DNA from: a virus
Virus record (IMG/VR): IMGVR_UViG_3300020153_000001
Coordinates: 32,001-96,000 of that record
DNA: 64,000 bases
Reading direction: 5' to 3' (one strand)
Part shown: piece by piece, positions 13,541 to 61,996 of the stretch
Layout: each line of letters starts with the position of its first letter
How positions within the stretch are numbered: the first letter of the stretch is position 1
Program-made: the position numbers and the translations under genes
The notes under the pieces: model-generated
The model's input: the letters and a program-made list of their open reading frames with translations, nothing else
What the model was told of the DNA's origin: nothing
Database searches by the model: none

Positions 13541-16500
13541 TTAAGCGATAAGGTCAGTCTCTATACCAGCTAATGGTACGCTAGCCGTTCCAAAGGAATC
13601 ATTTCGTTTACCAGACTGGGCTATATTCTGACCTGGTGGGTTAACCTGAGGTGCTGTTCGAGTTGGAGGAACTCCCGACGATCTAGACGAGAGAGTACGC
13701 ACAAGAGGAGGAACTTCCTGAGTTGCAACTAGCGGCGGCTGGCTGCCGCCCGCAGAATATATAGACCGACGACCGGGAGCCGGCAACGATTGAACATTTT
13801 CGTCGAACGGAGCTGGAGGCTTATGGCCTTCAGATAATCGTTTTAGGGAAGAATACATTTGGTAGTAGCCTTCGCTTAACTTACCAGGAATATTCCGAAC
13901 ATCGCCGCTTAAGATTGCCCCAGCGACTCGGTGAATATAATCCATATTTCCTCCCGTACCGGACGCGAGCAACGCATAAACTACATCGCGGTATTCGATC
14001 TTACCGAGTTGATAGTCTCTCACAATCTTACTCACCACGTCTACAAACTCTGGTGTAAATCTACCCCTACCTACAGTGGCAAACTGCTTCCTAATTATAT
14101 ACGCGGAATAGTTCGCCAAGTCCTGCCGGGTAGGATTTTCTGGCAGCAAATACACGGGCGGACCATAGTCCGGTTGTGTCGTATCTGACTGAGACGCCGG
14201 CGGTCGGGTCGGACGCGTTTGTGCTACCGTAAATTCATCGTCCAATGACTCCCTTTGCCCGCGAAGAAACTCTCTTACACGCCGCCTTTCAGCTATTCCA
14301 GGATCTATAGGCACTCTATTTTCTCCAGCATATTGGCGATCACGCGACCTATCCCTGAACGGTAATGGTGTTCTTTTCTGTCTTTCTTCCCAGGCCTTTC
14401 TCCACCAGTCGTGTTCGTGGCCGAAGTTGCCGCCCGGGAATAATTCATCAACGTCTTTAGAAGCTCCCGGATACGCCGCGGATCTGCCGTGTAACATGAT
14501 GTCGTAGTCATCAAGAACTTTAGTACCACGGTTGGTGATCTGGTTATATGCTTCCTTGATCTTGTCCCATTCTTCCGGAGAGTAAATACTCTTTAGCTGA
14601 GCTACTAAATTTTCAACTGATGCCCTACCCTTTGGACCATGTCTAGCCTCGTGCCCTAGAGAACTTTGAATTTGCAACAGCCTTATCAGACCTATCGCAT
14701 TTCTGACGGAATGGCCGTCGACGTACTGATTACCGTTTTCGTCCTGTTTAGCAAAATGCCGGCTCGCAATACCTATAACGTCTGCTTTATCCCAAAACGT
14801 GTCATAGCCTAACCTGCGCCAGTTGTAGCTATCGCTCCACTGGTCCGCGATTTTTAGCGCGTCCTCAGAAACCTTTCCATACACAGTATCAATAACTCTG
14901 GTGTAGTCTTTATAATCCCGGTTCTTCATTACTTGGTTGTAATAGCTAGTCGCTTCCTTGTGTTTTTGCGCCGATTCCTCCAGCCTCTCATCTATGGTTT
15001 TTTGTACGGTCACTACTCTACCGTCCGGGAACACGGCAAACGTTCGACCGGTCTTTTCATCTTTGTATACGCCAGGCGATAAGCCCTTAGGCGGCGGCTG
15101 CTGCAAGACCTTGATGTGTGGTGGTATATTTTGTGCCGGTTCCCTTGCAGCTTGTTGTTGTTGCTGTTGTTGGTCAGCCTCCGGTTGTTGGTCAGCCTCC
15201 GGTCGCCGGTCAGTACGTCTAGTACGAGCCTCCTGCACTCCATCTTGCGTAAATCCTGGGGCTATGCTTAGGTTTGGCGCACGTTTAGACAGTTTACTAG
15301 CGTCAGCCTTGTCGACATATTGGTTTACGTGCGGCCTTGCCAGCAGCTGTCCAACAAGCACGTGACCTAGCGACGCTTTTTGGTCTTTCGGCAGAGACTG
15401 AAGTAGTGCTAAGTATGGCTCCAATGTATATAAAAGCTTACCATATTCGTCCTGCGGAAGCACATCGCTAAGTTCTTCCATCGAAATTCTGAGCTCATCG
15501 GCCAGCTTTCCAACGGTCATGTTGAGATCGACGGGCTGCTTCTCATTTATTAATTCGGCAAGTTTCAATATACCATCATATCGATCAAGCCCCCTTAAGA
15601 AGTTGATGATATCTATAATCGCCTTGAATGGAACTTTATCGTCGACGCTTTCAACATATTTCTGTTTTATAAAATGCGACACCATAAAATTAATCGCATC
15701 ATCGGGCACGTTGGCCGCTTTTGCTTTAGCGATTAACTCTCGCAGCGTTATTTCCGGCAGGTTTAACTCTATCCACGCGTCATTCACCGATTCTTGTGCT
15801 TGTTTCGTAAACGGAAGCAGCGCTGTCGCGATAGACGCAAGCTTACTATTGAGTCTGCGTAGATAAGTTTGCCTCACGTTATCCGAGAATTCTCCTCCGA
15901 AAATAACCTTGCAGGCTTCGTCTAACCGGCCTTGCTTGGCAGCGCCTTTAAGGTATGATCTTAAAAAATAGTACCACGTGCCAGAATCGACCTGTCTTGA
16001 CTCCTTTATTTGCTTAGCGAAAAAGTTCGCGGCTGTCGCTTCTGGCGAAGGAAGCGGAGTAGTACTGAGCTTTCTATATATCTCGTTAAAACGAGAATAT
16101 GGCGGCGGCTGGATGCCGAGTCTGCTTGCTAGTTGTTCTCCAATCTTGTCGGCAAGCGGTTGTAGTTGTGGATGGTGTGGATAGTATCGAGAAACTATCC
16201 CAAGGAACTTATCAACAAACTCTGGGGGCAGATTGTTGCCACTATATATCTCTGGATGTTTTCGGATAAGATCGCGAGCCTGCGCTACGAAATCCTCAGG
16301 AAACGCGCCCGGATTTATCCCTGATACTCGCAGCAGCGCTGCGGCGGCGGTTCTCTGAAAAAAGCTGCTTTCGGGGTTAAAGTAGTCCAAAATCGGCTTG
16401 ATCTCGTCTCTTTTAACAGGCGGAACTATAATCTTGTAGTACTTATGAATGTCGCCAGCGTCCGTCGATTCTTTAATAAGTGGTCGCGGGCAGTTAGATA

Positions 16501-25832: not shown

Positions 25833-28800
25833 TTATTTCTCGATTATCTTTATTGGCTGGTCTATAGCAATTTCTCCTCTAGCAAACGCGGCAAGCGCGT
25901 CTTTTTTCGTTTTAAATATTTTTACTGGTTTACGGCTATCGACGCGACTAGCATACCATAGGCCGATGAGATAGTCTTGTTGGGGGGTATAAACAGGCTC
26001 TGCAAATATGGCTGCTTTGAATAGATTCTTCGACGGTAGCAATTTATCGTAGGCTTCCTTGACGGCGTCGTCGGATGCGGGTACATGGAATTGCATCGTA
26101 TCGCCGTCGAAGTCAGCGCCAAAGGCCTGTGTAATAAGAGGGCTTATCTCTATGGTTTTACCCGGTATAAGAACGGGTCGAAACGCCATAATTCCGTACT
26201 TGTGAAGCACGGGCGCGCGGTTTACTACAACAGGCCGCTCTTGGATAACACGTTCCAAAGACTGCTTAGCATAGGGATGGCGCTCATTAACAAGCATATT
26301 CGCCACTAGAAACGGCGAAGCACGTAACGCTGGCGGAACGTTACGAAGCACGCTATCAGGAAGGCCGCGATGCATTAGGTCGCGAATAATAAACGGCTTA
26401 TACGCGACCCAAGCCGCCTCCTCGGGAATACCTATCTCGTCAATATCTAAAGAACTGTTCGGCGTAATGACTGCCCTACCAGCCAGCGTGGCACTAATAC
26501 CAAGCATTTTTCTCTGCATTATGCTGGCTTTCGGGCTGGAACCAACCACGGTAGCCAGCAAACCCTTAATACCCTGCTTCTTCAGGGCGTAGCTATGTGG
26601 ATCGTCTAGGCCTGTAAGCCCGTAAAAGATGGACATGAGCGATCTTCGCTCTTCCCGTAGATCGCTAATATCCGAGGCCAGTTCTTTATAAGCGCCGATG
26701 AAGTCGATGAGCTCTTTATAAAGATAGTTCGCATCATTAACGACAAGCGTGCCGTCTTTAATCATCGAGATAGGTCGAAAGATGGGCGGAATGACTGGAA
26801 CTTTGGTCCAAAATAGCTCGGACGGGTGGATACTAAAGCGTTTGAGGCCTTCAAGGTAGTTTAGCTTTTTGATAAGCGACGACCGTTTCGATGGCGTAGC
26901 AGTTTGGAGTTCTTCCCTGGTACGCGTTATTTCTCTATCGACGTCATAGTTTTTAAATAGTTCATAAAGCGCCATCGGACCGGATATAGGCCCTTTTGAT
27001 TGACGATACCGTTCAGGTATGGGAAGCTCGCCAGCAAATATGCTAATGAGGTCCTTCTCGCTTACGCCAATCAATCTACCAAGCAGTTCCACCATGATTG
27101 GGTTTGGAACCGGCTCTGGTAGCTTGATGGCGCTCCACCGCGTGCCAGCTAGACCTCCGGTAAGACCGTCGTCAAACAGCCCACCCTCTACCGTTCGGAA
27201 ACCGTCGCTATAGACACGAACTGTCTCGGAGTTCTGAACATATCGGTTACCCGCTAGTTGATCTATATCTTTATCTCGAAGCGCAAGAAGCCGTATACCA
27301 GAACGTTCTTGGATGGGGTTAATCCCTGCCCCTCTAAGCAAGGCGACAAATTTGTGCCATATATGCGGGATCTTGGGCTGCGGTAGGCTGTGGCCAGTCA
27401 TAAATTGTCGCCATGCCTCATCGTTCGCTTGTCCGCGGATAAGTGCGGCATCGGTTATTGTGTTGTACGCGCCGTGCGCCAACAGCGCGTTAAGCTCAAG
27501 GATCCCCAACCGTTTGGCTTTTCCCGATTCACCAACAGTGGGGATATCTTCTGCGCTTGCAGCAATAGCCTCGTCTACGGCCTGAAGCTTATCTTCTGCA
27601 ATATGGCACAGGCGCAGAATATATCCATAGCCTGTAAGCGCGCGTATTTTTCTACCCGTAACGGGATCTGTGAGCACTTCTGTATCGCTAACACCATGCT
27701 TCTTTAGCACGTCAGAAACGTATTGATGCAGCCTGTCGGCGTGTTCAAAATCCTTTACATAGATTGGCTTTCCTATCTTCTTAGCAACCTTCCCTAGAAG
27801 TGCTTCATATATTTGACCAATATTAGCCCGCGAAATAATAAACGGCGACGCGATGATATCGACAGGCTTGCCATCTTCGCCTATGGGCATCTGGCTATCG
27901 GGTTTAATGATAACGACGCCTTTATTTCCATATAGCCCCGCAATCTTATCTCCTTGTTGGGTCTCGAATATCGACTTTACGATAGCAACAATGCCCTCTT
28001 TTGTCTTACCAGCCGCTATTACTATCCCAGGCGCGTCATAGTCCCACGTAACGCTGTCATCAACAAACATCTTGTGGGAAGCTCTAGCGGTGGTGATAGG
28101 AAGCATCTTGGCACTAAGAATAATCGGCTCGCCCTTACGGAGAACCGTTCCTGGCCGCGCCACGCCCTCGTTAGTATACTTCTCTAAGTCCTCAGCGGTC
28201 ATTTTGCCAGGAAATAGCGACACGTAAGCCTGTTTTCCGCTAGGCTCTGCTGTTTGGTGCTGATAGACAAAAAGATTCTCGGCAGACAGTTTGCGCGCAA
28301 ATGACTGTGAGATAACGAAAGCGTCTTCGTATGTATCGCCGGTAGCCATATAGGCAATCTTTGCGTTTGTTCCCACCGCAAGATTGCCGTTTATATCGGT
28401 AAAATTGCTATAAGCCAAAAGCTGGCCAGGCTTTACGACATCGCCAGGCTTTACAAGCGGCTCGTTATATAAAGCCGTCTGCCTGGCATAAGGCGTATTG
28501 TTGTGCAACCAGATCTTCTTTGTGCTTCGGCTGTCAGCGTCATAAAGCTCGATAAAATCGGGAGTTACTTTGCGTACGACCCCCTTATATGGGCTATAAA
28601 CGGCACCAGCGTATTTTCCAAATATTGATACAAACGGTCTTCCACGGCTATCAACCGATTGCACTAAAGGCGCTTCTCTGTTTATGATGGGCAATGCTTG
28701 CGTAATAAATCGGCTTCCCATCGCCACGCGCTGCGGGAAGCAGGCGCTTTTCATGGGGATAAGTGACGCAAGCGGACCAAAGATATGCGTTGCATCCTTG

Positions 28801-30191
28801 ATGTAATGCGTTATTTTTTCCCTTGGTACGAAGAGCTCGTAGCCTTTTGATATTGCACGAACGTAACGACGACCGCTTTCTAGCTCGCCAGGGAACGCTA
28901 TCGTAACGTCCTCTACTTGATCCGATCTTAGCCAAGTCTCCTTATTTGTCTTTGCGTCGATGACTGGAATATAAAGAAGGCCGTCCGATCCTCGTCTTGC
29001 CGAGATTGTCATCCTTGTTTCTACCCCTACTTTGAGGGATTCTGGGGTAGTAACAGGGTCGATAAATCCTAGCTGCGTAGCATGGACGTCCCTGGCAGAA
29101 GATGGGATGGCCTCTACGGCGCCTATACCACCCTCCCCCATTCGTGTAAGACGGAAGGCGTGGTCAAGGATTTCGACGGGGTTGATCTCGGCTGGCGCCA
29201 TCACAAGCCCAGAAGCGCGAATTACATGATCAACGATAGGCTGGGCTGGTCTTGGCGGTATGATCTCTTTTTTGGGATTACGCATGGCCTTCCAGAGGAT
29301 ATTTCTTAAAATGAGGCGCATCTTTGCAGGGACGTTTTCGGCAAAGATATCCTCTGGACCAAGGAACTGCTGGTTGGCCAAAGAGTCTCTATCGTCTTCT
29401 CTGGCCTTGCCTTGGAGAAGCTGGATCATCTTGGCTGTAGCTGCTAGCGCCGCGCGTTTGTCGACATAGTTCTGCATTAGCCCTAAGTTGCGGCGCATCA
29501 CGTCCTGCGCTACAGGAACTTGCAAGAACTCGCGCGCAAGATCTACATCCGTAGAGCCAAACATTCTTTTGGCAAAACGCCGCGCATCTTCTACTTTCTC
29601 TGTTACATTGCGTGCCAGAAGATCAGCACCCCATGCTTGCCTTAGCTCTTCATCAGTTACTCCGATAGCTCTTAGAATAGGATAAAGCCGAAACTTCGCC
29701 TGTCCTGCTTGTATGTAGAATATGCCTGTCGTAGGGTCGAGTACGTAACGATGGGTTTTGCCGGCTGGGAGGTTGATGAAAGCCTCCGGCTCCCCTGTCT
29801 GACGGAACCGGACGTAGACGCCAGGTTTTAGCCGTTGTTGGTTCGTAATGGAATACTCAACGCCGCCTATAACAAAGACGCCTCGGTCGGTAAGATAGGG
29901 AACTTTGGCAAGAAGTGTGCGTTTCTCGATAACGCCTGATGGCGTTGTTATTCGTATCGTTCCATAAAGATCCCGCGCCAGTGTGCTGTTTGTGATAATG
30001 GCGCGCTTGTGATTAATAGGGCTTAAGATTTCTTCTTCTGGTTCCTTGTCTTTATATTCCACGTCTTTTAGCTCGATAGTCCAGTTACCCTGGCTATAAG
30101 AAGGCGTGGAAATAAAAGAATTACGGACAGCGTCGAAGATACGCTGCCGTATCGTCTTAACATCGGCAATATCGATAAGCTCGCCAGTCAT
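25833..30191 (-). CDS. rpoB-rpoC: RNA polymerase beta subunit fused to N-terminal part of beta' (includes catalytic loop)
   Basis: Beta motifs GVFVIGGVEY, TPES..VG, YEDAFVIS, GDK..GLYGNKG, RLGILELNAL; then beta' motifs GGLFD, PVIPPIFRP, GRAVI, NRAPVLH, GADFDGD. Confidence 0.95.
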   Translation of the reverse strand: MTGELIDIADVKTIRQRIFDAVRNSFISTPSYSQGNWTIELKDVEYKDKEPEEEILSPINHKRAIITNSTLARDLYGTIRITTPSGVIEKRTLLAKVPYLTDRGVFVIGGVEYSITNQQRLKPGVYVRFRQTGEPEAFINLPAGKTHRYVLDPTTGIFYIQAGQAKFRLYPILRAIGVTDEELRQAWGADLLARNVTEKVEDARRFAKRMFGSTDVDLAREFLQVPVAQDVMRRNLGLMQNYVDKRAALAATAKMIQLLQGKAREDDRDSLANQQFLGPEDIFAENVPAKMRLILRNILWKAMRNPKKEIIPPRPAQPIVDHVIRASGLVMAPAEINPVEILDHAFRLTRMGEGGIGAVEAIPSSARDVHATQLGFIDPVTTPESLKVGVETRMTISARRGSDGLLYIPVIDAKTNKETWLRSDQVEDVTIAFPGELESGRRYVRAISKGYELFVPREKITHYIKDATHIFGPLASLIPMKSACFPQRVAMGSRFITQALPIINREAPLVQSVDSRGRPFVSIFGKYAGAVYSPYKGVVRKVTPDFIELYDADSRSTKKIWLHNNTPYARQTALYNEPLVKPGDVVKPGQLLAYSNFTDINGNLAVGTNAKIAYMATGDTYEDAFVISQSFARKLSAENLFVYQHQTAEPSGKQAYVSLFPGKMTAEDLEKYTNEGVARPGTVLRKGEPIILSAKMLPITTARASHKMFVDDSVTWDYDAPGIVIAAGKTKEGIVAIVKSIFETQQGDKIAGLYGNKGVVIIKPDSQMPIGEDGKPVDIIASPFIISRANIGQIYEALLGKVAKKIGKPIYVKDFEHADRLHQYVSDVLKKHGVSDTEVLTDPVTGRKIRALTGYGYILRLCHIAEDKLQAVDEAIAASAEDIPTVGESGKAKRLGILELNALLAHGAYNTITDAALIRGQANDEAWRQFMTGHSLPQPKIPHIWHKFVALLRGAGINPIQERSGIRLLALRDKDIDQLAGNRYVQNSETVRVYSDGFRTVEGGLFDDGLTGGLAGTRWSAIKLPEPVPNPIMVELLGRLIGVSEKDLISIFAGELPIPERYRQSKGPISGPMALYELFKNYDVDREITRTREELQTATPSKRSSLIKKLNYLEGLKRFSIHPSELFWTKVPVIPPIFRPISMIKDGTLVVNDANYLYKELIDFIGAYKELASDISDLREERRSLMSIFYGLTGLDDPHSYALKKQGIKGLLATVVGSSPKASIMQRKMLGISATLAGRAVITPNSSLDIDEIGIPEEAAWVAYKPFIIRDLMHRGLPDSVLRNVPPALRASPFLVANMLVNERHPYAKQSLERVIQERPVVVNRAPVLHKYGIMAFRPVLIPGKTIEISPLITQAFGADFDGDTMQFHVPASDDAVKEAYDKLLPSKNLFKAAIFAEPVYTPQQDYLIGLWYASRVDSRKPVKIFKTKKDALAAFARGEIAIDQPIKIIEK

Positions 30192-33888: not shown

Positions 33889-34968
33889 ATGGGGATCTAT
33901 CTCATCGGCTACCCCGGCGACGTTGGCGGAGCAAACGCAGAGTGCTGGCATACGGTTAAATTGTGGCGTAAATTTGGATTGGACGTAACCCTCATCCCCA
34001 CATGGGGGGGACCTCTTCCCGAATTCCGCAGCCGCTGCGACGAGATAGGATGCCGGACGCTCGTCATTAAGCAATCTGAGCTCTCTAATCTTGAGGAACT
34101 AAAAGGCGCCCCTGTAATCTCCTTCTGCAATAGCGAGTTTCTTAAAAACGCAGATACTATACGGCGCATGGGCTGCAAGATCATTTGGGTAGGGTGCATG
34201 TGCTGGCTGTTTAACGAAGAGAAACGGCACTACGCAAGAATGAACCGACCGTTTGACGCCTATATATTCCAGAGCCAGCATCAGTATAACACCTTACTAC
34301 CACAGCTCGAACGCTACGGCGTTAAAAAAGAAAGCTGCTTTCTTGTAAGGGCGGCATTTGCGCTCGATGAGTGGACCTTTAAACCACTCCCTCACAGGAA
34401 AGGCGAGCCATTCGTCGTGGGAAGGATAAGCCGACCTGCCCCAGACAAATTTCATACTTATACATGGAAGATATATGAGCGCATTATCCACCCTATTCAC
34501 GCAAGGATTATGGCGTGGAGCCCGGAAGTAGAAAAAAAGATAGGAAAGCCTCCACAATGGGCCACGGTACTAACCAGCCGGGCGGAGACAGCACAGGAAT
34601 TTTTCTCGCAATTGCATTGTATGATACAAGCAAGCGATCATGCTCAAGAGAACTGGCCCCGTTCCGGTCTTGAGGCTATGGCGGCAGGGGTGCCCATCGT
34701 TACGCACAACGCTTGGGGATGGAAGGAGATGATAATTCATGGCGTTACGGGATTTTTGGCGGACGATTTGGACGAAATGGCCTATTACGCTACTAAGCTA
34801 GCATACGAAGAGGAGCTTAGGCGGTTTATAGTAGAGTCTGCACGAAAAAAGCTTTATGAACTTACAGACGACAACACGATATGGCAAAGATGGAAAACCG
34901 CCTTTGAGTACGTCGATAAAACGTATGGGACGAAGATTTTGACTCCGGAGTCAAAATCTGCCATCTAG
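33889..34968 (+). CDS. Glycosyltransferase, GT-B/GT4-like
   Basis: VGGANAE at N-terminus; ENWPRSGLEAMAAGVPIV..GWKEMIIHGVTGFL. Confidence 0.85.
   Translation: MGIYLIGYPGDVGGANAECWHTVKLWRKFGLDVTLIPTWGGPLPEFRSRCDEIGCRTLVIKQSELSNLEELKGAPVISFCNSEFLKNADTIRRMGCKIIWVGCMCWLFNEEKRHYARMNRPFDAYIFQSQHQYNTLLPQLERYGVKKESCFLVRAAFALDEWTFKPLPHRKGEPFVVGRISRPAPDKFHTYTWKIYERIIHPIHARIMAWSPEVEKKIGKPPQWATVLTSRAETAQEFFSQLHCMIQASDHAQENWPRSGLEAMAAGVPIVTHNAWGWKEMIIHGVTGFLADDLDEMAYYATKLAYEEELRRFIVESARKKLYELTDDNTIWQRWKTAFEYVDKTYGTKILTPESKSAI
34937..34956. repeat. 20-bp palindrome, copy 8
   Basis: Exact, extends to 26 bp (34934-34959); codes LTPESK at the GT C-terminus. Confidence 0.98.
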
Positions 34969-35013
34969 TACGCTCTTTTTTAAAATCTAGCTAAAAAAAG
35001 AAAATATAGATTC

Positions 35014-35035
35014 GGGCTGTTGATCAGCCCTTTTT
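35014..35035 (+). terminator. Intrinsic terminator after the GT4 gene
   Basis: GGGCTG-TTGAT-CAGCCC followed by T5. Confidence 0.7.
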
Positions 35036-35058
35036 ATATCCCCTTAAACATAAGAGCT

Positions 35059-35247
35059 AAAAAAAGAGCACGCTCTGGCAGTGGGTTCGTCTAGGCGCCC
35101 CGGGCCGACGGGCGCCTCCCCCCGTATACTTCCGAAACGACTTCTTCGGATATTCCACCGCCAGCAGGCCCGGCTCTTTTTCCCCTCCCGCCTACTAGCC
35201 GCCGGGCTCGGCTGGCCCAACAGGGCCTTGGCGGGAAGAGCCCGTAC
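35059..35247 (-). ncRNA. Candidate structured RNA, copy A (family unknown)
   Basis: GC-rich multi-stem element ending in U7; homologous to 36115-36319 with compensatory stem changes. Confidence 0.65.
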
Positions 35248-35255
35248 ATTCATGT

Positions 35256-35286
35256 TTAATTGCCGTGTTATTGTCAAATCTTTAGC
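35256..35286 (-). promoter_or_regulatory. Repeated promoter-like motif GCTAAA-N16-GGCAATTAA
   Basis: Directly upstream of RNA copy A; same motif at four other sites. Confidence 0.6.
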
Positions 35287-35330
35287 TTATATTGCATGGG
35301 CTAAAAAAAGCAAACCCCGTCATGGAAGAA

Positions 35331-35350
35331 TTTTGACTCCGGAGTCAAAA
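35331..35350. repeat. 20-bp palindrome, copy 9
   Basis: Exact; between a terminator and the next promoter motif. Confidence 0.98.
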
Positions 35351-35375
35351 CTTGCCGTTTGAGTTTTTAATAGAT

Positions 35376-35429
35376 AAAAAAAGAGAGCGCAGCCAGCAGG
35401 GGAACTAGACAGCTCGCCCTGCTGGCTGC
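35376..35429 (-). terminator. Intrinsic terminator
   Basis: 13-bp stem GCAGCCAGCAGGG/CCCTGCTGGCTGC then GCTCTCTTTTTTT. Confidence 0.8.
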
Positions 35430-35436
35430 TTATTTT

Positions 35437-36066
35437 TTATTTATAAACGACAATGTCTATTTCGTATTTACCCCCGTGATACCCTGGGGAATACCGGACG
35501 CCGGCAACGTGGGCTCGGTCGCCCGGTTGTTCAACTACTGGCGAATGCCATCCATCCTTTCCGGGGGCGACCTTAACGGTCTCACCCCAGGATGTCTTTA
35601 ATACCTTCGGTAGCCGCCAGTAGCCCTCGGCCATCTGGCGGCATGTGGGGTGAGCAAGCACTAGTGTTAGTGTCTCGTGATGCCGCTCCCCCGCTCTGCT
35701 GAGGAAATCCTCGTTCTTGTCGAGCCTTTCCCCCGTCCTGGGGTACTCGGCTCGAATAATCTCTTTTGTCAGGTCGACGGGTAATTGAAGCTCCCCGGCC
35801 AACTCTTCCCACGTAAGGGCCTCCTGCCCAAACGTCCCGTGCATTGGGCTCAGTAATTCTATTGGACGGGTTCCGTCCTCGAGCCCGATCTCGTATTCCG
35901 TCCACGACCATTTCCCGCAGGGGTGGTGTTCTCTTTTCAAAACAACGCACCACCCCGGGATATCTTTACCTTCAAATTTTCGGGCCTCGCGGCCCTTGAT
36001 AAGGTATAGACGCGGATACCGCCCGCCATGTTCCCTGCCGTCAGTCCACTGGAAAACGCTAATCAT
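35437..36066 (-). CDS. Hypothetical accessory protein
   Basis: Start moved to ATG 36066 (GAGGAG SD); the ORF-track extension runs through the structured RNA. Confidence 0.65.
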   Translation of the reverse strand: MISVFQWTDGREHGGRYPRLYLIKGREARKFEGKDIPGWCVVLKREHHPCGKWSWTEYEIGLEDGTRPIELLSPMHGTFGQEALTWEELAGELQLPVDLTKEIIRAEYPRTGERLDKNEDFLSRAGERHHETLTLVLAHPTCRQMAEGYWRLPKVLKTSWGETVKVAPGKDGWHSPVVEQPGDRAHVAGVRYSPGYHGGKYEIDIVVYK

Positions 36067-36114
36067 GTTTTTATCTCCTCTTAAAAAAAAGGACTTGAAA
36101 CTTGCCGAAAATCT

Positions 36115-36319
36115 AAAAAAAGAGCTTTTTGAGGTGGTAGGTTCAACGGCGCCCCGGGCCACGGGCGCCTCCGCCGTATTTACCTTTTCCCCCGAAGGGG
36201 ATGCACTTCTCTCTCTTCGGATATTCTCCACCCCAACGGCCCGGCTCTTTTTTCCCCTCCCGCCTACTAGCCGCCGGGCTCGGCTGGTCCTTTGGACCTT
36301 GGCGGGAGGGAGCCCGTCC
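36115..36319 (-). ncRNA. Candidate structured RNA, copy B (leader of 35437..36066)
   Basis: Shares blocks such as CAGCCGAGCCCGGCGGCTAGTAGGCGGGAGGGGAAAAA with copy A. Confidence 0.65.
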
Positions 36320-36327
36320 ATTCATGT

Positions 36328-36358
36328 TTAATTGCCGTGTTATTGCCAAATCTTTAGC
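36328..36358 (-). promoter_or_regulatory. Promoter-like motif GCTAAA-N16-GGCAATTAA
   Basis: Near-identical to 35256-35286. Confidence 0.6.
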
Positions 36359-36696
36359 CAACAATTAGACCTACCCTTTCCTCCCCCCTTTTTTCTATAG
36401 GCTGGTAGAATAGATAGAAATAATGAGCGAGAGAGATAGAGAAAGAGAGGAGAGAGCTAGATAAAAAATTGGGAGGAAAAGAGTGGTAGTTGCCCTTATT
36501 ATGGTTTGGTTGGTTTCTCTTTTTTTAAGAACGGAACAAAGAGAAAGTTAGATTAACTCGTTATTTTCTTATATAAGAAAAAAAGAGAGAGAAGGAAAAA
36601 TAATAAAAGCAAAGAAAAAAATCTCTAAAAAATAGAGAGGCGGCAGGTAAAAAAAAGTAAAAAAAGTCTTTTTTTCCTTATCTATGGGAAGGAAAG

Positions 36697-36737
36697 TAGC
36701 TAAAGAGAGAGCGGCCCCCGCCTCGGGGGCGGGGGCC
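36697..36737 (-). terminator. Intrinsic terminator
   Basis: 10-bp stem GGCCCCCGCC/GGCGGGGGCC then GCTCTCTCTTTAGCTA, right after the stop of 36738..36932. Confidence 0.7.
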
Positions 36738-36932
36738 TCATTTTACTATAACCGGGTCCCCCTTCCGGGGGACCACGACGACTCCCCCGGACGAGGTGAC
36801 GACGACGATGTCATCACCCCGCCGGACGACGGCGACCGTCCCGGGGAGCGACTCAATCTGGGAAGGGGGCGCAGAACACCCCCCTCCCCCCATCGCGGCT
36901 AGGATGATTAAAGCAATGAACGCCCTTTTCAT
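36738..36932 (-). CDS. Small putative lipoprotein
   Basis: MKRAFIALIILAAMGGGGC signal-peptide-II-like N-terminus, 64 aa, AGGAGG SD; start moved to ATG 36932. Confidence 0.55.
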   Translation of the reverse strand: MKRAFIALIILAAMGGGGCSAPPSQIESLPGTVAVVRRGDDIVVVTSSGGVVVVPRKGDPVIVK

Positions 36933-37129
36933 CTTTTTATTCCTCCTTTTATAAAAGGAACTTTTTCCGACCCACATATAAATGCCAATTTTTAATGCAT
37001 TATTCGGGAATCTTTCCTCCTTCCCTAATACGCGCCTTGTAGCAAGGAGCTTTTCCCTAGCCGCTACGTCATTCTTATAAATAAGGAAGAATATAAAAAG
37101 CGGCAAGTTTTGGGGATAAGAAGACCTTT

Positions 37130-37149
37130 TTTTGACTCCGGAGTCAAAA
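37130..37149. repeat. 20-bp palindrome, copy 10
   Basis: Exact, T7/A7 flanks (37127-37152). Confidence 0.98.
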
Positions 37150-37325
37150 AAATAAAGAGGAGGGGTGAAAAGGAGTTATGAATACAATAAACATCCTCTA
37201 TAATTGAGGGAAGAAGTTTTAAAAATAAAAAAATAGAAGTGGAGCTTATAAACCGTTTTGTAGGCGTTTAATCTTAAAAAAGAGCCATCTCCATAAGATG
37301 AATGACGCGGCAAGGCGCCGATTAA

Positions 37326-37393
37326 GCCGGTCTCCGACGGCGGAAACGGCGGCTTGTACCCGCCGAAGCGGGGTTCGACTCCCCGGACCGGCT
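37326..37393 (+). tRNA. tRNA-Thr(UGU)-like, compact non-canonical cloverleaf, 68 nt
   Basis: Acceptor GCCGGTC/GACCGGC, anticodon stem CGGCGG/CCGCCG with loop CTTGTAC, T-arm CGGGG-TTCGACT-CCCCG, minimal D-arm; no CCA. Confidence 0.7.
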
Positions 37394-37395
37394 GT

Positions 37396-37463
37396 GCCTG
37401 CCTGATGCGGCATCGACGCTGATTCGTACTCAGCGGAAGGGGGTTCGACTCCCCCGGCAGGCT
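37396..37463 (+). tRNA. tRNA-Thr(CGU)-like, compact non-canonical cloverleaf, 68 nt
   Basis: Acceptor GCCTGCC/GGCAGGC, D-arm GATG-CGG-CATC, anticodon stem CGCTGA/TCAGCG with loop TTCGTAC, T-arm GGGGG-TTCGACT-CCCCC; no CCA. Confidence 0.7.
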
Positions 37464-37513
37464 ATTAACTAATAGACCTATCTTTTATCATTATTAATAA
37501 AAATAAATAAATG

Positions 37514-37604
37514 AAAATTCCGCAGAATTCCCGTTTTTCACTGCCGAATTTCTGCAAAATTTCCGCAAAATTCCTGCTGAATTCTGCGGAATTCCTGCAA
37601 AATC
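37514..37604. repeat. Imperfect 10-11-bp tandem repeats with a 15-bp inverted repeat
   Basis: gaatttctgca/aaatttccgca/aaattcctgct/gaattctgcg/gaattcctgca (37546-37599); AATTCCGCAGAATTC (37516-37530) is the reverse complement of 37579-37593. Confidence 0.8.
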
Positions 37605-37828
37605 AACGTATTAATTTGGCCGTAATCGCTATGAATCCAATCATCCTGCAATTCGTGCGCCAGCCAACTAAAGCGATTAGCCGATAAGCACGACAAATTT
37701 AACTAATTACCTTCCACATACACAATACTAGCTAAAAAATAAAAATTCTAGACTGAGGGTAGAAGCTTTGAACGGCCCCCTCAGCCAACCCAAGCTCCTT
37801 TCGGGGGAAGTGGGAGGAAGATGGATAA

Positions 37829-37916
37829 TTGGCCGCCTGCTTCATTGCCAGGGCGGGGCCCTTTCTGCGGTCGAACCGCACCGGAACCTCGCCCCGGCCG
37901 GCCGTCTGGCGGCCAA
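37829..37916 (-). ncRNA. Candidate structured RNA (family unknown)
   Basis: Closing stem TTGGCCGCC/GGCGGCCAA, internal GGGGC/GCCCC stem and TGCGG-TTCGA-CCGCA hairpin; follows the promoter motif. Confidence 0.45.
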
Positions 37917-37947
37917 CGAATATAAATAATACCCTTTGGGGTCACAC

Positions 37948-37978
37948 TTAAATGCCATTGTTTTGCCAATTGTTTAAC
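37948..37978 (-). promoter_or_regulatory. Promoter-like motif variant GTTAAA-N16-GGCATTTAA
   Basis: Same spacing; 6 nt downstream of palindrome copy 11. Confidence 0.55.
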
Positions 37979-37984
37979 GAAATT

Positions 37985-38004
37985 TTTTGACTCCGGAGTC
38001 AAAA
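37985..38004. repeat. 20-bp palindrome, copy 11
   Basis: Exact; intergenic. Confidence 0.98.
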
Positions 38005-38041
38005 GATTTGATCTTCTGAACGTGCTCCTCCAAAGATAAAT

Positions 38042-38087
38042 AAAAAAGGGGGCTGGTCGAGCATAGTTTCCCTGGCTCGACCAGCCC
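38042..38087 (-). terminator. Intrinsic terminator
   Basis: 13-bp stem GGGCTGGTCGAGC/GCTCGACCAGCCC with U-tract. Confidence 0.75.
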
Positions 38088-38324
38088 TTTTAACGGCCGG
38101 TTCACCACGTCTTGATCCCGATGAACCGGCCAACCAAATATAGCGCGGCCAAGGCCGCGATGAATGCCCTGGCCGCGCTACCGGCGTCCATATTGGCGGC
38201 GGCAACCGCCACCGCCAATACGAACGCGACAACGGCCGCCAACATTTCCCATCTCCTCAAAAAAGCAAGGAAAAAAACTAAAAACCCAGGGGAATCGGAC
38301 CGCCCGATTCAAGCTTAAATGCCG

Positions 38325-38552
38325 CTACTTTGACAAAAAATATACCGCTATAAATACAATAAGCGGCGTCAGTGCCGTCATGCCTAGCTTAAACCCAAAG
38401 TCGCCGCCTATAAGCACAGCCGCCGCAATAGCGAGCGAAGCTGCAGCTATACCGATAGGTAGGCCGAACTTCGCATTCTGGGCGTATTCATTAACTATCA
38501 GCGGTAGAAAGAACAATCCAGTCGCAACGGCGGCCAAAATTAACCCGTCCAT
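38325..38552 (-). CDS. Small membrane protein
   Basis: 75 aa, mostly hydrophobic, AAGGA SD. Confidence 0.55.
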   Translation of the reverse strand: MDGLILAAVATGLFFLPLIVNEYAQNAKFGLPIGIAAASLAIAAAVLIGGDFGFKLGMTALTPLIVFIAVYFLSK

Positions 38553-38630
38553 TGTCGTGTCCTTTCGCTTCCATTAAGCCGTTAAAAATATCGACAGAGG
38601 GCACCAGCCTCTAATAGTACGACGCCTGAT

Positions 38631-39029
38631 TTAGTTCTCGATAACAGGAAGCATGTCTATAGCAATAACGGCCCGTAACAGATTAGCAAGGTCGCGGTCA
38701 AAGTCCACATCATTAGTAGTTACGTATAGCTTGTTATTTCGACACCCTACCCTTGTCTCATATAATATGCTTTCGATCTTTTTCGTGTTTTGTTCGTACT
38801 TATCATCTTCTCTTAGATCTCTAATCGTACTTCCGTTGTCATCTATGGTAAAACCATCCCCTTGCTCTCTTACATAAAGCTCGATATGATAACCTTTGCG
38901 TGATTTAATAGGGCAGAATACGATAACGTGATCGTCAAATAATGTATAATCGAATCCCAACGTCATCTGGCACAAATACTTGCGCAATAGCGTCTCAAGA
39001 TTCAGTTTAGCCTTCGTTTCGTGTTTCAT
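38631..39029 (-). CDS. DUF1828-like protein
   Basis: IELYVREQGDGFTIDDNGSTIRDL resembles the DUF1828 core (recalled, not searched). Confidence 0.5.
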   Translation of the reverse strand: MKHETKAKLNLETLLRKYLCQMTLGFDYTLFDDHVIVFCPIKSRKGYHIELYVREQGDGFTIDDNGSTIRDLREDDKYEQNTKKIESILYETRVGCRNNKLYVTTNDVDFDRDLANLLRAVIAIDMLPVIEN

Positions 39030-39062
39030 CGAAGCCCTTTCTTAAAAGAGACCAAAAACCAT

Positions 39063-39082
39063 TTTTGACTCCGGAGTCAAAA
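39063..39082. repeat. 20-bp palindrome, copy 12
   Basis: Exact; at a divergent strand switch. Confidence 0.98.
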
Positions 39083-39164
39083 TGCCGGGGCGATTCATAA
39101 GAGCATAGAAATATGATAGATTGGAGATTGGGCAAACCGTATTTCCGTAACGGAGGAAGAACGC

Positions 39165-39554
39165 GTGGAGAAGCGATTTCTGCCTGTAAAGAAGAAAACG
39201 GTCATCGAAATTTGCCTGCTTTTGGGGTTTGATGAGAATTTTGAAAATCTCAGCCAGAAAGAGAAGGATATCGTTACAGCTGTTGTTTTTGTCGCTTACA
39301 AATACGACGCTGAGATTGTGAGAATTATATTTAGAAAGTATAAAGATCAGCTTCTCGATAATATAGAGACAGCGGATATCAAGCTAGGCATAGCAGATAA
39401 TACGTGGGCTACCATCTTTATCAACGGCATACCTCAAAAATGGTATGATATTAAAAACGCGAAGTTTATAGACGATACCCCTATCGTGCTAGACGCCCGA
39501 GTGTTCGATATAAAAGGGATTACTAAGCTCATTGAGCTTCGGCTTACCGACTAA
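39165..39554 (+). CDS. Hypothetical protein
   Basis: GTG start with GGAGG SD; bracketed by palindrome copies 12 and 13. Confidence 0.6.
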   Translation: MEKRFLPVKKKTVIEICLLLGFDENFENLSQKEKDIVTAVVFVAYKYDAEIVRIIFRKYKDQLLDNIETADIKLGIADNTWATIFINGIPQKWYDIKNAKFIDDTPIVLDARVFDIKGITKLIELRLTD

Positions 39555-41479: not shown

Positions 41480-41530
41480 TTCGACTCCTTTCTAAAAAGG
41501 GAAAGAAAAATATGGCCTGATACAAAAAAG

Positions 41531-41890
41531 TGGAGGCGGCGGGAATCGAACCCGCGTCCCGCGGCGGCCTTCGGATAGGCCTGGTACGTGCGTAGTCGGT
41601 TTTTGAATTTCGCCAGCCGGGGCCCAACCGACAGGGCCATCTCGACGGCTAGCCGGCCTTGAAGTTTAATCTTGGGCCAAACCGGCGCCGACCCAAGACG
41701 AGCCGGAATTGCCGACCGGTTTTCGGGCCTCTCCGGCAAAAGCCCTCAACCGGGCTGCCTATCGACTAAGCAGCAATCGCGAGCGGCTGCTCGGCGTGTA
41801 ATTTTGCAGTCGGCTTTTAACGTGGCCAGCCGACCAACCACGGCACGGTGCCTATCGCCAGAGCCGTCCGGTCGAATCCAATTCGCCCCC
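41531..41890 (-). ncRNA. ssrA: tmRNA
   Basis: 5' GGGGGCG pairs with 3' CGCCTCC-A (G3:U70 Ala identity); GGATTCGAC and GGTTCGATTCC motifs; tag ORF 41807-41766 = AKLHAEQPLAIAA-stop. Confidence 0.95.
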
Positions 41891-60685: not shown

Positions 60686-60758
60686 TAGGCCGGGCAGGAA
60701 TCGAACCTGCAGCCGGCGGATTAGAAGTCCGCTGCTCTATCCTTTGAGCTACCGGCCC
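60686..60758 (-). tRNA. tRNA-Arg(UCU)
   Basis: Canonical 73-nt cloverleaf; anticodon arm GCGGA-CTTCTAA-TCCGC; no CCA. Confidence 0.92.
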
Positions 60759-61810: not shown

Positions 61811-61902
61811 GCTAAGTCTCCCATATGACCGCTGCTCGAAGAGAAACTAAATAATCTTATGGGTGCCCGTAATTTGTTTAACTTGCGGCAAGCGGCCGTA
61901 AA

Positions 61903-61975
61903 TAGGCCAGGCAGGACTCGAACCTGCGACCCGTTGCTTATAAGGCAACCGCTCTCACCCCTGAGCTACTGGCCT
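61903..61975 (-). tRNA. tRNA-Ile(UAU)
   Basis: Canonical 73-nt cloverleaf; anticodon arm GTTGC-CTTATAA-GCAAC; no CCA. Confidence 0.92.
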
Positions 61976-61996
61976 ACCTCAATTGCTACTGACATG

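Follow-up and report, generated by a model that had tools for sequence, protein, structure and literature searches.

Can a tRNA with a D arm pared down to a few nucleotides serve a phage as a working decoder and, if so, what might the compact form be good for? This question is raised by two adjacent tRNA-Thr genes in a 64,000-nt window that comprises bases 32001–96000 of a 135.5-kb virus genome (47% GC, estimated 94% complete). The source virus is a phage, and its genome contains many ORFs without a family, one tmRNA and few tRNAs. Positions in this phage are given below as positions of the window.

The upstream gene, which we call t1, is a compact tRNA-Thr(UGU) at 37326–37393 on the plus strand; the downstream gene, t2, is a compact tRNA-Thr(CGU) at 37396–37463 on the same strand, and a 2-nt spacer, GT (37394–37395), lies between them. 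Each gene is 68 nt long including a discriminator U, and in neither is the CCA encoded. The two genes have a common layout, 7 / 1 / 13 (D arm plus connector) / 6 / 7 / 6 / 3 / 5 / 7 / 5 / 7 / 1. In t1, the 7-bp acceptor (37326–37332/37386–37392) is followed by U8 (37333), by the D stem CCG/CGG (37334–37336/37341–37343), which has 3 bp, or 4 bp if U8 pairs with A19, and encloses the D loop ACGG (37337–37340), by a 6-bp anticodon stem (37347–37352/37360–37365) with the anticodon UGU (37355–37357), by the variable loop AAG (37366–37368) and by the T arm (37369–37385). In t2, the corresponding elements are the 7-bp acceptor (37396–37402/37456–37462), U8 (37403), a 4-bp D stem GAUG/CAUC (37404–37407/37411–37414) with the D loop CGG (37408–37410), a 6-bp anticodon stem (37417–37422/37430–37435) with the anticodon CGU (37425–37427), the variable loop GAA (37436–37438) and the T arm (37439–37455). 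Both genes have two or three connector nucleotides between the D stem and the anticodon stem, a 7-nt anticodon loop with U33, A37 and C38, a normal T arm with the T loop TTCGACT, and an acceptor that starts G1-C72, C2-G71, C3-G70. The tandem of 68-nt genes 2 nt apart and its anatomy had been proposed in the original prediction, and both were confirmed from the sequence and by the first pass of ARAGORN.

Bacterial and phage tRNAs normally have a D loop of 7–11 nt and two connector nucleotides (8 and 9). The pair falls outside this canonical core, for which positions 8–26 span about 18–22 nt with two connectors and a D loop of 7–11 nt; positions 8–26 span 15 nt in both t1 and t2, compared to 19 nt in the Ala, Ile and Arg tRNAs of the same phage. 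Two of these, the canonical tRNA-Arg(UCU) (60686–60758, minus strand; 19 nt) and tRNA-Ile(UAU) (61902–61976, minus strand; 19 nt), are internal controls. The 7-bp acceptor, 5-bp T stem, T-loop motif and anticodon loop of both genes are those of an elongator tRNA cloverleaf. Moreover, counting 6 bp for the anticodon stem and 3 nt for the variable loop gives the same total length as a 5-bp stem, a paired 26:44 and a variable region of 4 nt, and the former reading is also what ARAGORN returns for several tRNAs of normal length. The truly unusual part of t1 and t2 is positions 8–26 only. The identity set of Escherichia coli ThrRS consists of G1-C72, C2-G71, G35 and U36, and both genes have four of the four elements, in agreement with the predicted fit to ThrRS identity.

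The compact cloverleaf is both the minimum free energy fold and the centroid fold of t1, of t2 and of the 138-nt dimer in RNAfold, with ensemble frequencies of 0.70 and 0.49 and z-scores of −2.7 to −3.0. The two genes are identical at 44 of 68 positions, and six stem pairs outside the D arm are changed on both sides between t1 and t2 and are still Watson-Crick. We aligned, without gaps, 18 distinct 68-nt tRNA-Thr genes from unrelated contigs, t1 and t2 included. In this alignment, 93.4% of cells are paired, compared to 63% when partners are shuffled and 39–50% when partners are slid by one to three columns; both-side changes are found in 18 of the 22 pairs, and the covariation score is 0.80 versus 0.21. 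Members were picked by acceptor pairing and by a pattern that fixes G1, C2, U8, the GG and the T loop, so columns fixed by this choice are no evidence; what counts independently is the pairing in the D stem, in the anticodon stem and in most of the T stem. The pairs that covary include the sixth of the anticodon stem and all four of the D stem. The loop features of an elongator tRNA are invariant in all 18 genes, although the search pattern had in part dictated U33 and the T loop. Judged from these substitution patterns, the compact fold is under selection. It had been claimed that the stems differ while pairing is kept, as expected for a selected fold, and the six compensatory changes together with the covariation of the alignment substantiate this; decay of pairing in homologues, which would have spoken against it, is not seen.

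The relatives in this alignment were found with a degenerate pattern that combined the compact spacing with G1, C2, U8, GG, U33, G35, U36, part of the T arm and G71-C72. The pattern matched 95 stretches in IMG/VR and 43 in 185,579 species genomes. Most of these matches were ordinary tRNA-Thr genes read three bases out of register, and they were filtered by acceptor pairing in the compact register. At least 16 further distinct 68-nt tRNA-Thr genes remained from IMG/VR, the species genomes and metagenomes. Compact tRNA-Thr genes were found on viral contigs (L027, L116, L068, L109, L113 with two genes, and L063; both L113 genes are also present in L083 and L097), on contigs of metagenome-assembled genomes (L149, L142 and L151, from two Planctomycetota and one Gemmatimonadota) and, among the matches listed, on six metagenome contigs (L245, L188, L184, L180, L277 and L225). 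Every further compact tRNA-Thr for which the context was checked sits in a tRNA cluster, from 2–4 genes up to arrays of 21–40, and the three nominally cellular genes are no exception (L149 has 24 tRNAs in ∼4 kb). In L142, a compact Thr(CGU) lies 33 nt after a compact Thr(UGU), which is the same tandem as that of t1 and t2. In BLAST searches with two other arrays that contain compact tRNAs, every match was a canonical tRNA of a cultured phage, such as the 77-nt tRNA-Thr of Bacillus phage BC-VP.

The compact form stands apart from ordinary tRNAs in length. We parsed 799 distinct tRNAs from the collected loci and the phage genome with rules that demanded 7/7 acceptor, 5/5 anticodon-stem and 5/5 T-stem pairs, U33, R37 and the T-loop motif. 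The span of positions 8–26 is bimodal: 31 genes have 15 nt (21 genes) or 16 nt (10 genes) and 764 have 18–22 nt, with single genes at 14 nt and at 23 nt and two at 17 nt. The bimodal distribution indicates that the compact form is a discrete solution and not the product of decay. With 15–16 nt at positions 8–26, a covarying D stem of 3–4 bp and a loop of 3–4 nt that ends in GG, t1 and t2 belong to the compact class. Six isotypes have compact genes (Thr, Cys, Trp, Ala, Met and Arg); none was seen among Gly, Pro, Glu, Lys, Asn, Val, Ile, Leu, Gln, Phe, His and Asp (16–67 genes each). The count for Thr is biased by how the loci were found, while those for other isotypes are not. Identity marks are kept in compact genes (G3:U70 in Ala, G73 in Trp and U73 in Cys), as expected if ordinary synthetases still charge these tRNAs. 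Restriction of compaction to Thr(UGU/CGU) is rejected by the compact Cys, Trp, Ala, Met and Arg genes and by compact Thr(GGU) genes in L068 and L277. The idea that compaction is common in phage tRNA-Thr(UGU) is rejected as well: none of 102 such genes, collected with the anticodon loop and T arm as the only anchors and thus unselected for the D arm, is compact, and the compact share is probably under about 3%.

Several of these loci merit separate description. A 39-tRNA array with a tmRNA (L180, Ga0272441_10008043) has four compact genes, for Thr(UGU), Cys, Met and Ala(UGC), which indicates that compaction can be a property of a whole array. Four Myxococcales/Labilithrix contigs of metagenome-assembled genomes (L124, L125, L126 and L150) carry compact tRNA-Cys and tRNA-Met genes with 15–16 nt at positions 8–26. 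The 45-gene viral array of L063 includes, at 1816–1889, a tRNA with a CUA anticodon that ARAGORN labels tRNA-Pyl, which hints at stop-codon recoding in that phage.

It had been suggested that standard scanners may miss the pair, and this holds for Rfam: at its gathering score, the tRNA model RF00005 matched neither t1 nor t2, and it matched the Arg and Ile tRNAs of the same phage with 72 bits each. In a permissive search with the Rfam clan, the best match of t1 was tRNA-Sec (24.3 bits), and t2 yielded a T-arm fragment only. The suggestion holds only in part for ARAGORN, which finds both genes, though with wrong ends: its first pass gives the exact coordinates, and its final calls are mis-extended to 37325–37394 and 37391–37464 and overlap. 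Elsewhere ARAGORN skips compact Thr(CGU) genes (L083, 10884–10950; L097, 5029–5095), and in these 26-gene arrays the skipped gene leaves an apparent gap between tRNA-Asn and tRNA-Val. Compact tRNA genes are thus under-counted, since Rfam-type models miss them and ARAGORN misplaces their ends or skips them, and surveys of phage tRNAs are distorted as a result.

The pair lies in a variable island (34917–39387, ∼4.5 kb) without DNA similarity to the closest IMG/VR relative, G001 (IMGVR_UViG_3300031950_000001), in which ∼8.6 kb of unrelated DNA occupies the space between the same flanks. The relationship of the two phages is seen in the fused beta/beta' multisubunit RNA polymerase (25833–30191), which is 83% identical in G001. 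The five tRNAs of our phage (the two Thr plus Ala, Ile and Arg) are scattered and form no array; the sole tRNA of G001 is a tRNA-Met. No tRNA-Thr is present in the whole genomes of G001 and of a second relative, G005, so there is no orthologous copy of the pair for comparison; likewise, the flanks of five relative loci found through the fused RNA polymerase hold zero tRNAs. The DNA of the locus was found in two sequencing runs, a hot-springs metagenome and a sediment metagenome, and in no RNA run. The 3-kb neighbourhood of the pair has no BLAST match among 50,697 phage records, an exact 21-mer of t1 has no match in IMG/VR, and the ORFs that adjoin the pair match no tRNA-related family. We found no sigma-70-like site on the plus strand upstream of the pair, and no k-mer is common to the regions upstream of the pair and those of the tmRNA, the other tRNAs and two neighbouring small RNAs. 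An attP or integration remnant is ruled out as an origin of the pair, as both genes are complete and no integrase is nearby.

Other features of the neighbourhood were recorded alongside the pair. A tmRNA (41530–41890, minus strand; 146 bits, tag AEQPLAIAA) is missing in G001, where the corresponding interval is ∼1.4 kb shorter. A 20-bp palindrome, T4-GACTCCGGAGTC-A4, occurs at 18 sites across window positions 2908–60564 (17 perfect, 0 expected), and copies flank the pair at 37130–37149 (∼180 nt upstream) and 37985–38004 (∼520 nt downstream); it resembles a bidirectional terminator spread over the genome, or else a site for the RNA polymerase that the phage encodes. About 120 nt upstream of the pair, a nine-codon mini-ORF (37173–37208, plus strand; MNTINILYN, one ACA codon) follows an AGGAG Shine-Dalgarno sequence and is probably due to chance in AT-rich DNA. 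Just downstream of the pair, at 37510–37600, a TTCCGCAGAATTCC-like word is repeated in direct and inverted orientation; the cluster gives a spurious match to an Rfam microRNA-precursor hairpin and could be a protein-binding array. In the distantly related 195-kb genome G005 (L007), a tRNA-like gene at 16408–16481 (minus strand) is assigned a four-base anticodon (ttca) by ARAGORN, a reading that implies 8 nt in the anticodon loop, and the gene may encode a suppressor or frameshift tRNA.

Codon usage in the phage follows its tRNA set. In this phage (G000), ACA accounts for 31% of Thr codons, AUA for 43% of Ile codons and AGA for 26% of Arg codons, compared to 19, 16 and 10%, respectively, in G001, which lacks tRNA-Thr(UGU), tRNA-Ile(UAU) and tRNA-Arg(UCU); a 2.3-point difference in genome GC may explain part of this shift. 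The raised use of these codons relative to G001 indicates that t1 and t2 most likely decode. ACG is not raised (32% in this phage versus 37% in G001), and the codon argument therefore supports t1 only and not t2. In the large arrays of 21–40 tRNAs, which serve almost every amino acid, each compact Thr gene is the sole carrier of its anticodon, its neighbours are canonical and the Thr(GGU) gene is usually canonical too. We found no match to PF00587, PF01409 or PF01743, which represent synthetase cores and the CCA-adding enzyme, in the phage genome with its estimated completeness of 94%; the host must therefore charge the tRNAs and add the CCA. On the evidence of the sequences, t1 and t2 are likely to be working compact tRNA-Thr decoders.

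We propose the following course of events. With a spacer of 2 nt, t1 and t2 would be transcribed as one precursor, in which host RNase P would cut at the 5′ end of t2, while host enzymes would process the 3′ ends and add the CCA. Host ThrRS would then charge both tRNAs by way of G1-C72, C2-G71, G35 and U36. The L-shape is probably kept in the manner proposed for mitochondrial tRNASer(UCN): the single connector nucleotide and the 4-bp D stem would carry a loop of 3–4 nt whose GG could still reach the T loop, and the extra 26:44 pair would lengthen the anticodon stem. The predicted assignment is that t1 (UGU) reads ACA, and that ACG is read by t2 (CGU) and probably by t1 too, such that the first role of the pair would be to secure decoding of phage genes rich in ACA and ACG.

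A further role is suggested by the anticodons themselves, because UGU and CGU are exactly the two Thr anticodons that are attacked by the Toprim enzymes P2-OLD and AriB, the latter being the nuclease of PARIS. P2-OLD is lethal because it removes the anticodon arm of tRNA-Thr(UGU); its activity on Thr(CGU) is weak, Thr(GGU) is left uncut, and a phage tRNA-Thr(UGU) rescues from P2-OLD by replacement and not by competitive protection (PMC12445682). The substrates of AriB are Lys(UUU) and Thr(UGU), with weak cleavage of Asn(GUU) and Thr(CGU); the enzyme requires the context U36-A-A-U-C|A41, and its second subunit has been proposed, from an AlphaFold 3 model and a U16C mutant, to dock on U16/U17 of the D loop (PMC12409363). 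Both t1 and t2 carry C38 instead of A38, and their D loop has no room for positions 16 and 17. Escape from such nucleases is plausible, since P2-OLD and AriB target Thr(UGU) and Thr(CGU) and AriB reads the D loop. The compact D arm would most likely also remove features of the D loop and of overall shape that are read by host tRNA-directed nucleases, and the phage copies of tRNA-Thr could then survive the destruction of host tRNA-Thr. Nuclease resistance is argued here by analogy to E. coli systems, and a real anti-nuclease benefit of the compact form may exist, although we consider it somewhat less probable than its absence. It cannot be the whole story, as compaction is also found in Thr(GGU) and in five other isotypes and is rare.

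If the pair does not deliver threonine, three other readings of it have to be weighed, and we consider all three improbable, to different degrees. According to one, t1 and t2 are tRNA mimics that do not decode but sequester a host tRNA nuclease, a modification enzyme or ThrRS as decoys or inhibitors, and their unusual shape and the failure of the Rfam tRNA model on them are in keeping with this. Decoys had been raised in the original prediction; however, the perfect 7-nt anticodon loop with U33 and A37, the intact ThrRS identity elements, GG and TTCGA elbow, the position of compact Thr genes as the sole ACA/ACG isoacceptors of large arrays and the raised ACA usage of this phage speak against them, and the published rescue from OLD works through replacement and not through competitive protection (PMC12445682). 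Such a role is unlikely. Still less likely are decaying pseudogenes, or tRNA-like signals that mark a transcript for RNase P or RNase Z. The location in a variable island among non-coding RNAs, with no promoter identified, and the rarity of the class would suit these possibilities, but the six compensatory double changes between t1 and t2 and the strong covariation over 18 genes, anticodon stem included, argue against decay, and the invariant features of the anticodon loop would be needless in a processing signal. The least credible of the three, to a degree that we hardly take into account, is an orthogonal or recoding pair charged with another amino acid by a dedicated enzyme, as is tRNAPyl. 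The tRNAPyl-like geometry is its only support; both anticodons match sense Thr codons, a U occupies the discriminator position in place of G, and the ThrRS identity pairs are present, as are the GG and the T-loop motif that tRNAPyl lacks. The dedicated synthetase that had been envisaged is likewise not indicated, as the phage genome has no class II synthetase core of the ThrRS type or of the PylRS/PheRS type.

If, as we favour, the pair decodes, the compact D arm may nevertheless have no function of its own: t1 and t2 could be plain codon-supply tRNAs, and the small D arm a tolerated, neutral or economy variant that spread with mobile arrays under relaxed constraint. The agreement of codon usage with the phage tRNA set points this way, as do the rarity of compaction and its presence both in several isotypes and in some genes for Thr(GGU), which is not known to be attacked by nucleases. 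Relaxed constraint, however, predicts a continuum of D-arm lengths with broken pairs, and what we find is a separate mode at 15–16 nt, well-paired and covarying D stems and a conserved GG. Compaction is also confined to six isotypes, which indicates constraint or selection. We regard this explanation as possible and yet rather doubtful. An equally tentative view is that the tRNAs with a compact core form a distinct, horizontally spread class, the phage and mobile-element counterpart of mitochondrial type I, that was selected to defeat nucleases that dock on the D loop, in which case t1 and t2 might be regarded as a shape-based anti-defence module.

If the anti-nuclease view is true, the pair would exemplify an escape from tRNA-directed immunity that is based on shape and concerns the very isoacceptors that P2-OLD and PARIS attack, a hypothesis that can be tested at the bench. 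The existence of a compact, covarying class implies that the bacterial translation apparatus probably accepts a compact core of the mitochondrial type. Compact tRNAs with standard identity elements are, in addition, possible scaffolds for tRNA engineering.

The combination of a single connector, a small D loop, a 6-bp anticodon stem and a 3-nt variable loop has been given only for tRNAPyl and for mammalian mitochondrial tRNASer(UCN) (PMC7609411), and the likeness to both that had been noted for t1 and t2 matches this description. The mitochondrial tRNA keeps G18G19 and TPsiC and is presumed to be L-shaped, while tRNAPyl has a CUA anticodon and G73 and lacks G18G19 and TPsiC (PMC7609411). Given that the GG of the D loop and the TTCGA of the T loop are kept in t1 and t2, mitochondrial tRNASer(UCN) is the closer analogue, with which they have in common the single connector, the small D loop, the 6-bp anticodon stem, the 3-nt variable loop, the GG and the T-loop motif. 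That tRNA, however, is organellar and AT-rich, with a Ser anticodon and weak stems, whereas t1 and t2 are GC-rich, serve Thr codons, have an even smaller D loop (3–4 nt) and must work with bacterial ThrRS, EF-Tu and ribosomes. The two are the same architecture and not the same family. The tRNAPyl of Methanosarcina barkeri and Desulfitobacterium hafniense likewise has the single connector, short D loop, 6-bp anticodon stem and 3-nt variable loop, but identity with tRNAPyl is rejected by the anticodons (UGU and CGU versus CUA), by U73 in place of G73, by the presence of GG and TTCGA, and by the absence of a match to PF01409 (PylRS-type) in the genome. Identity with allo-tRNAs is rejected as well, because these have 8/4 or 9/3 acceptor branches (PMC5389517).

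Among phage and mobile tRNAs, the closest settings are the tRNA array units and L-arrays (PMC4758250, PMC5966550, PMC8421152, PMC12803027), in which the other compact tRNA-Thr genes with checked context reside; the phage studied here differs in its five scattered tRNAs without an array. Array tRNAs have been remarked to diverge from chromosomal tRNAs in three arms (D, anticodon and variable), and they may counter defences (PMC12803027); the four array papers define no discrete compact class. A literature search of incomplete coverage turned up no publication that describes phage tRNAs with a compact D arm. The published phage tRNA-Thr genes that resist P2-OLD, and the T5 tRNAs that resist AriB, are normal cloverleaves with point changes, which comprise changes of the CNG motif, a shorter anticodon stem, U39/A41 and U16 (PMC12445682, PMC12409363). 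By analogy, t1 and t2 resemble them as phage-encoded Thr(UGU) and Thr(CGU) tRNAs that would be able to replace a Toprim-targeted host isoacceptor; they differ in that the whole D arm is miniaturised and in that their resistance is putative. Overall, t1 and t2 are genuine, rare and maintained by selection; they represent a structural variant among the replacement or supplement tRNAs that phages encode, and not a new type of system.
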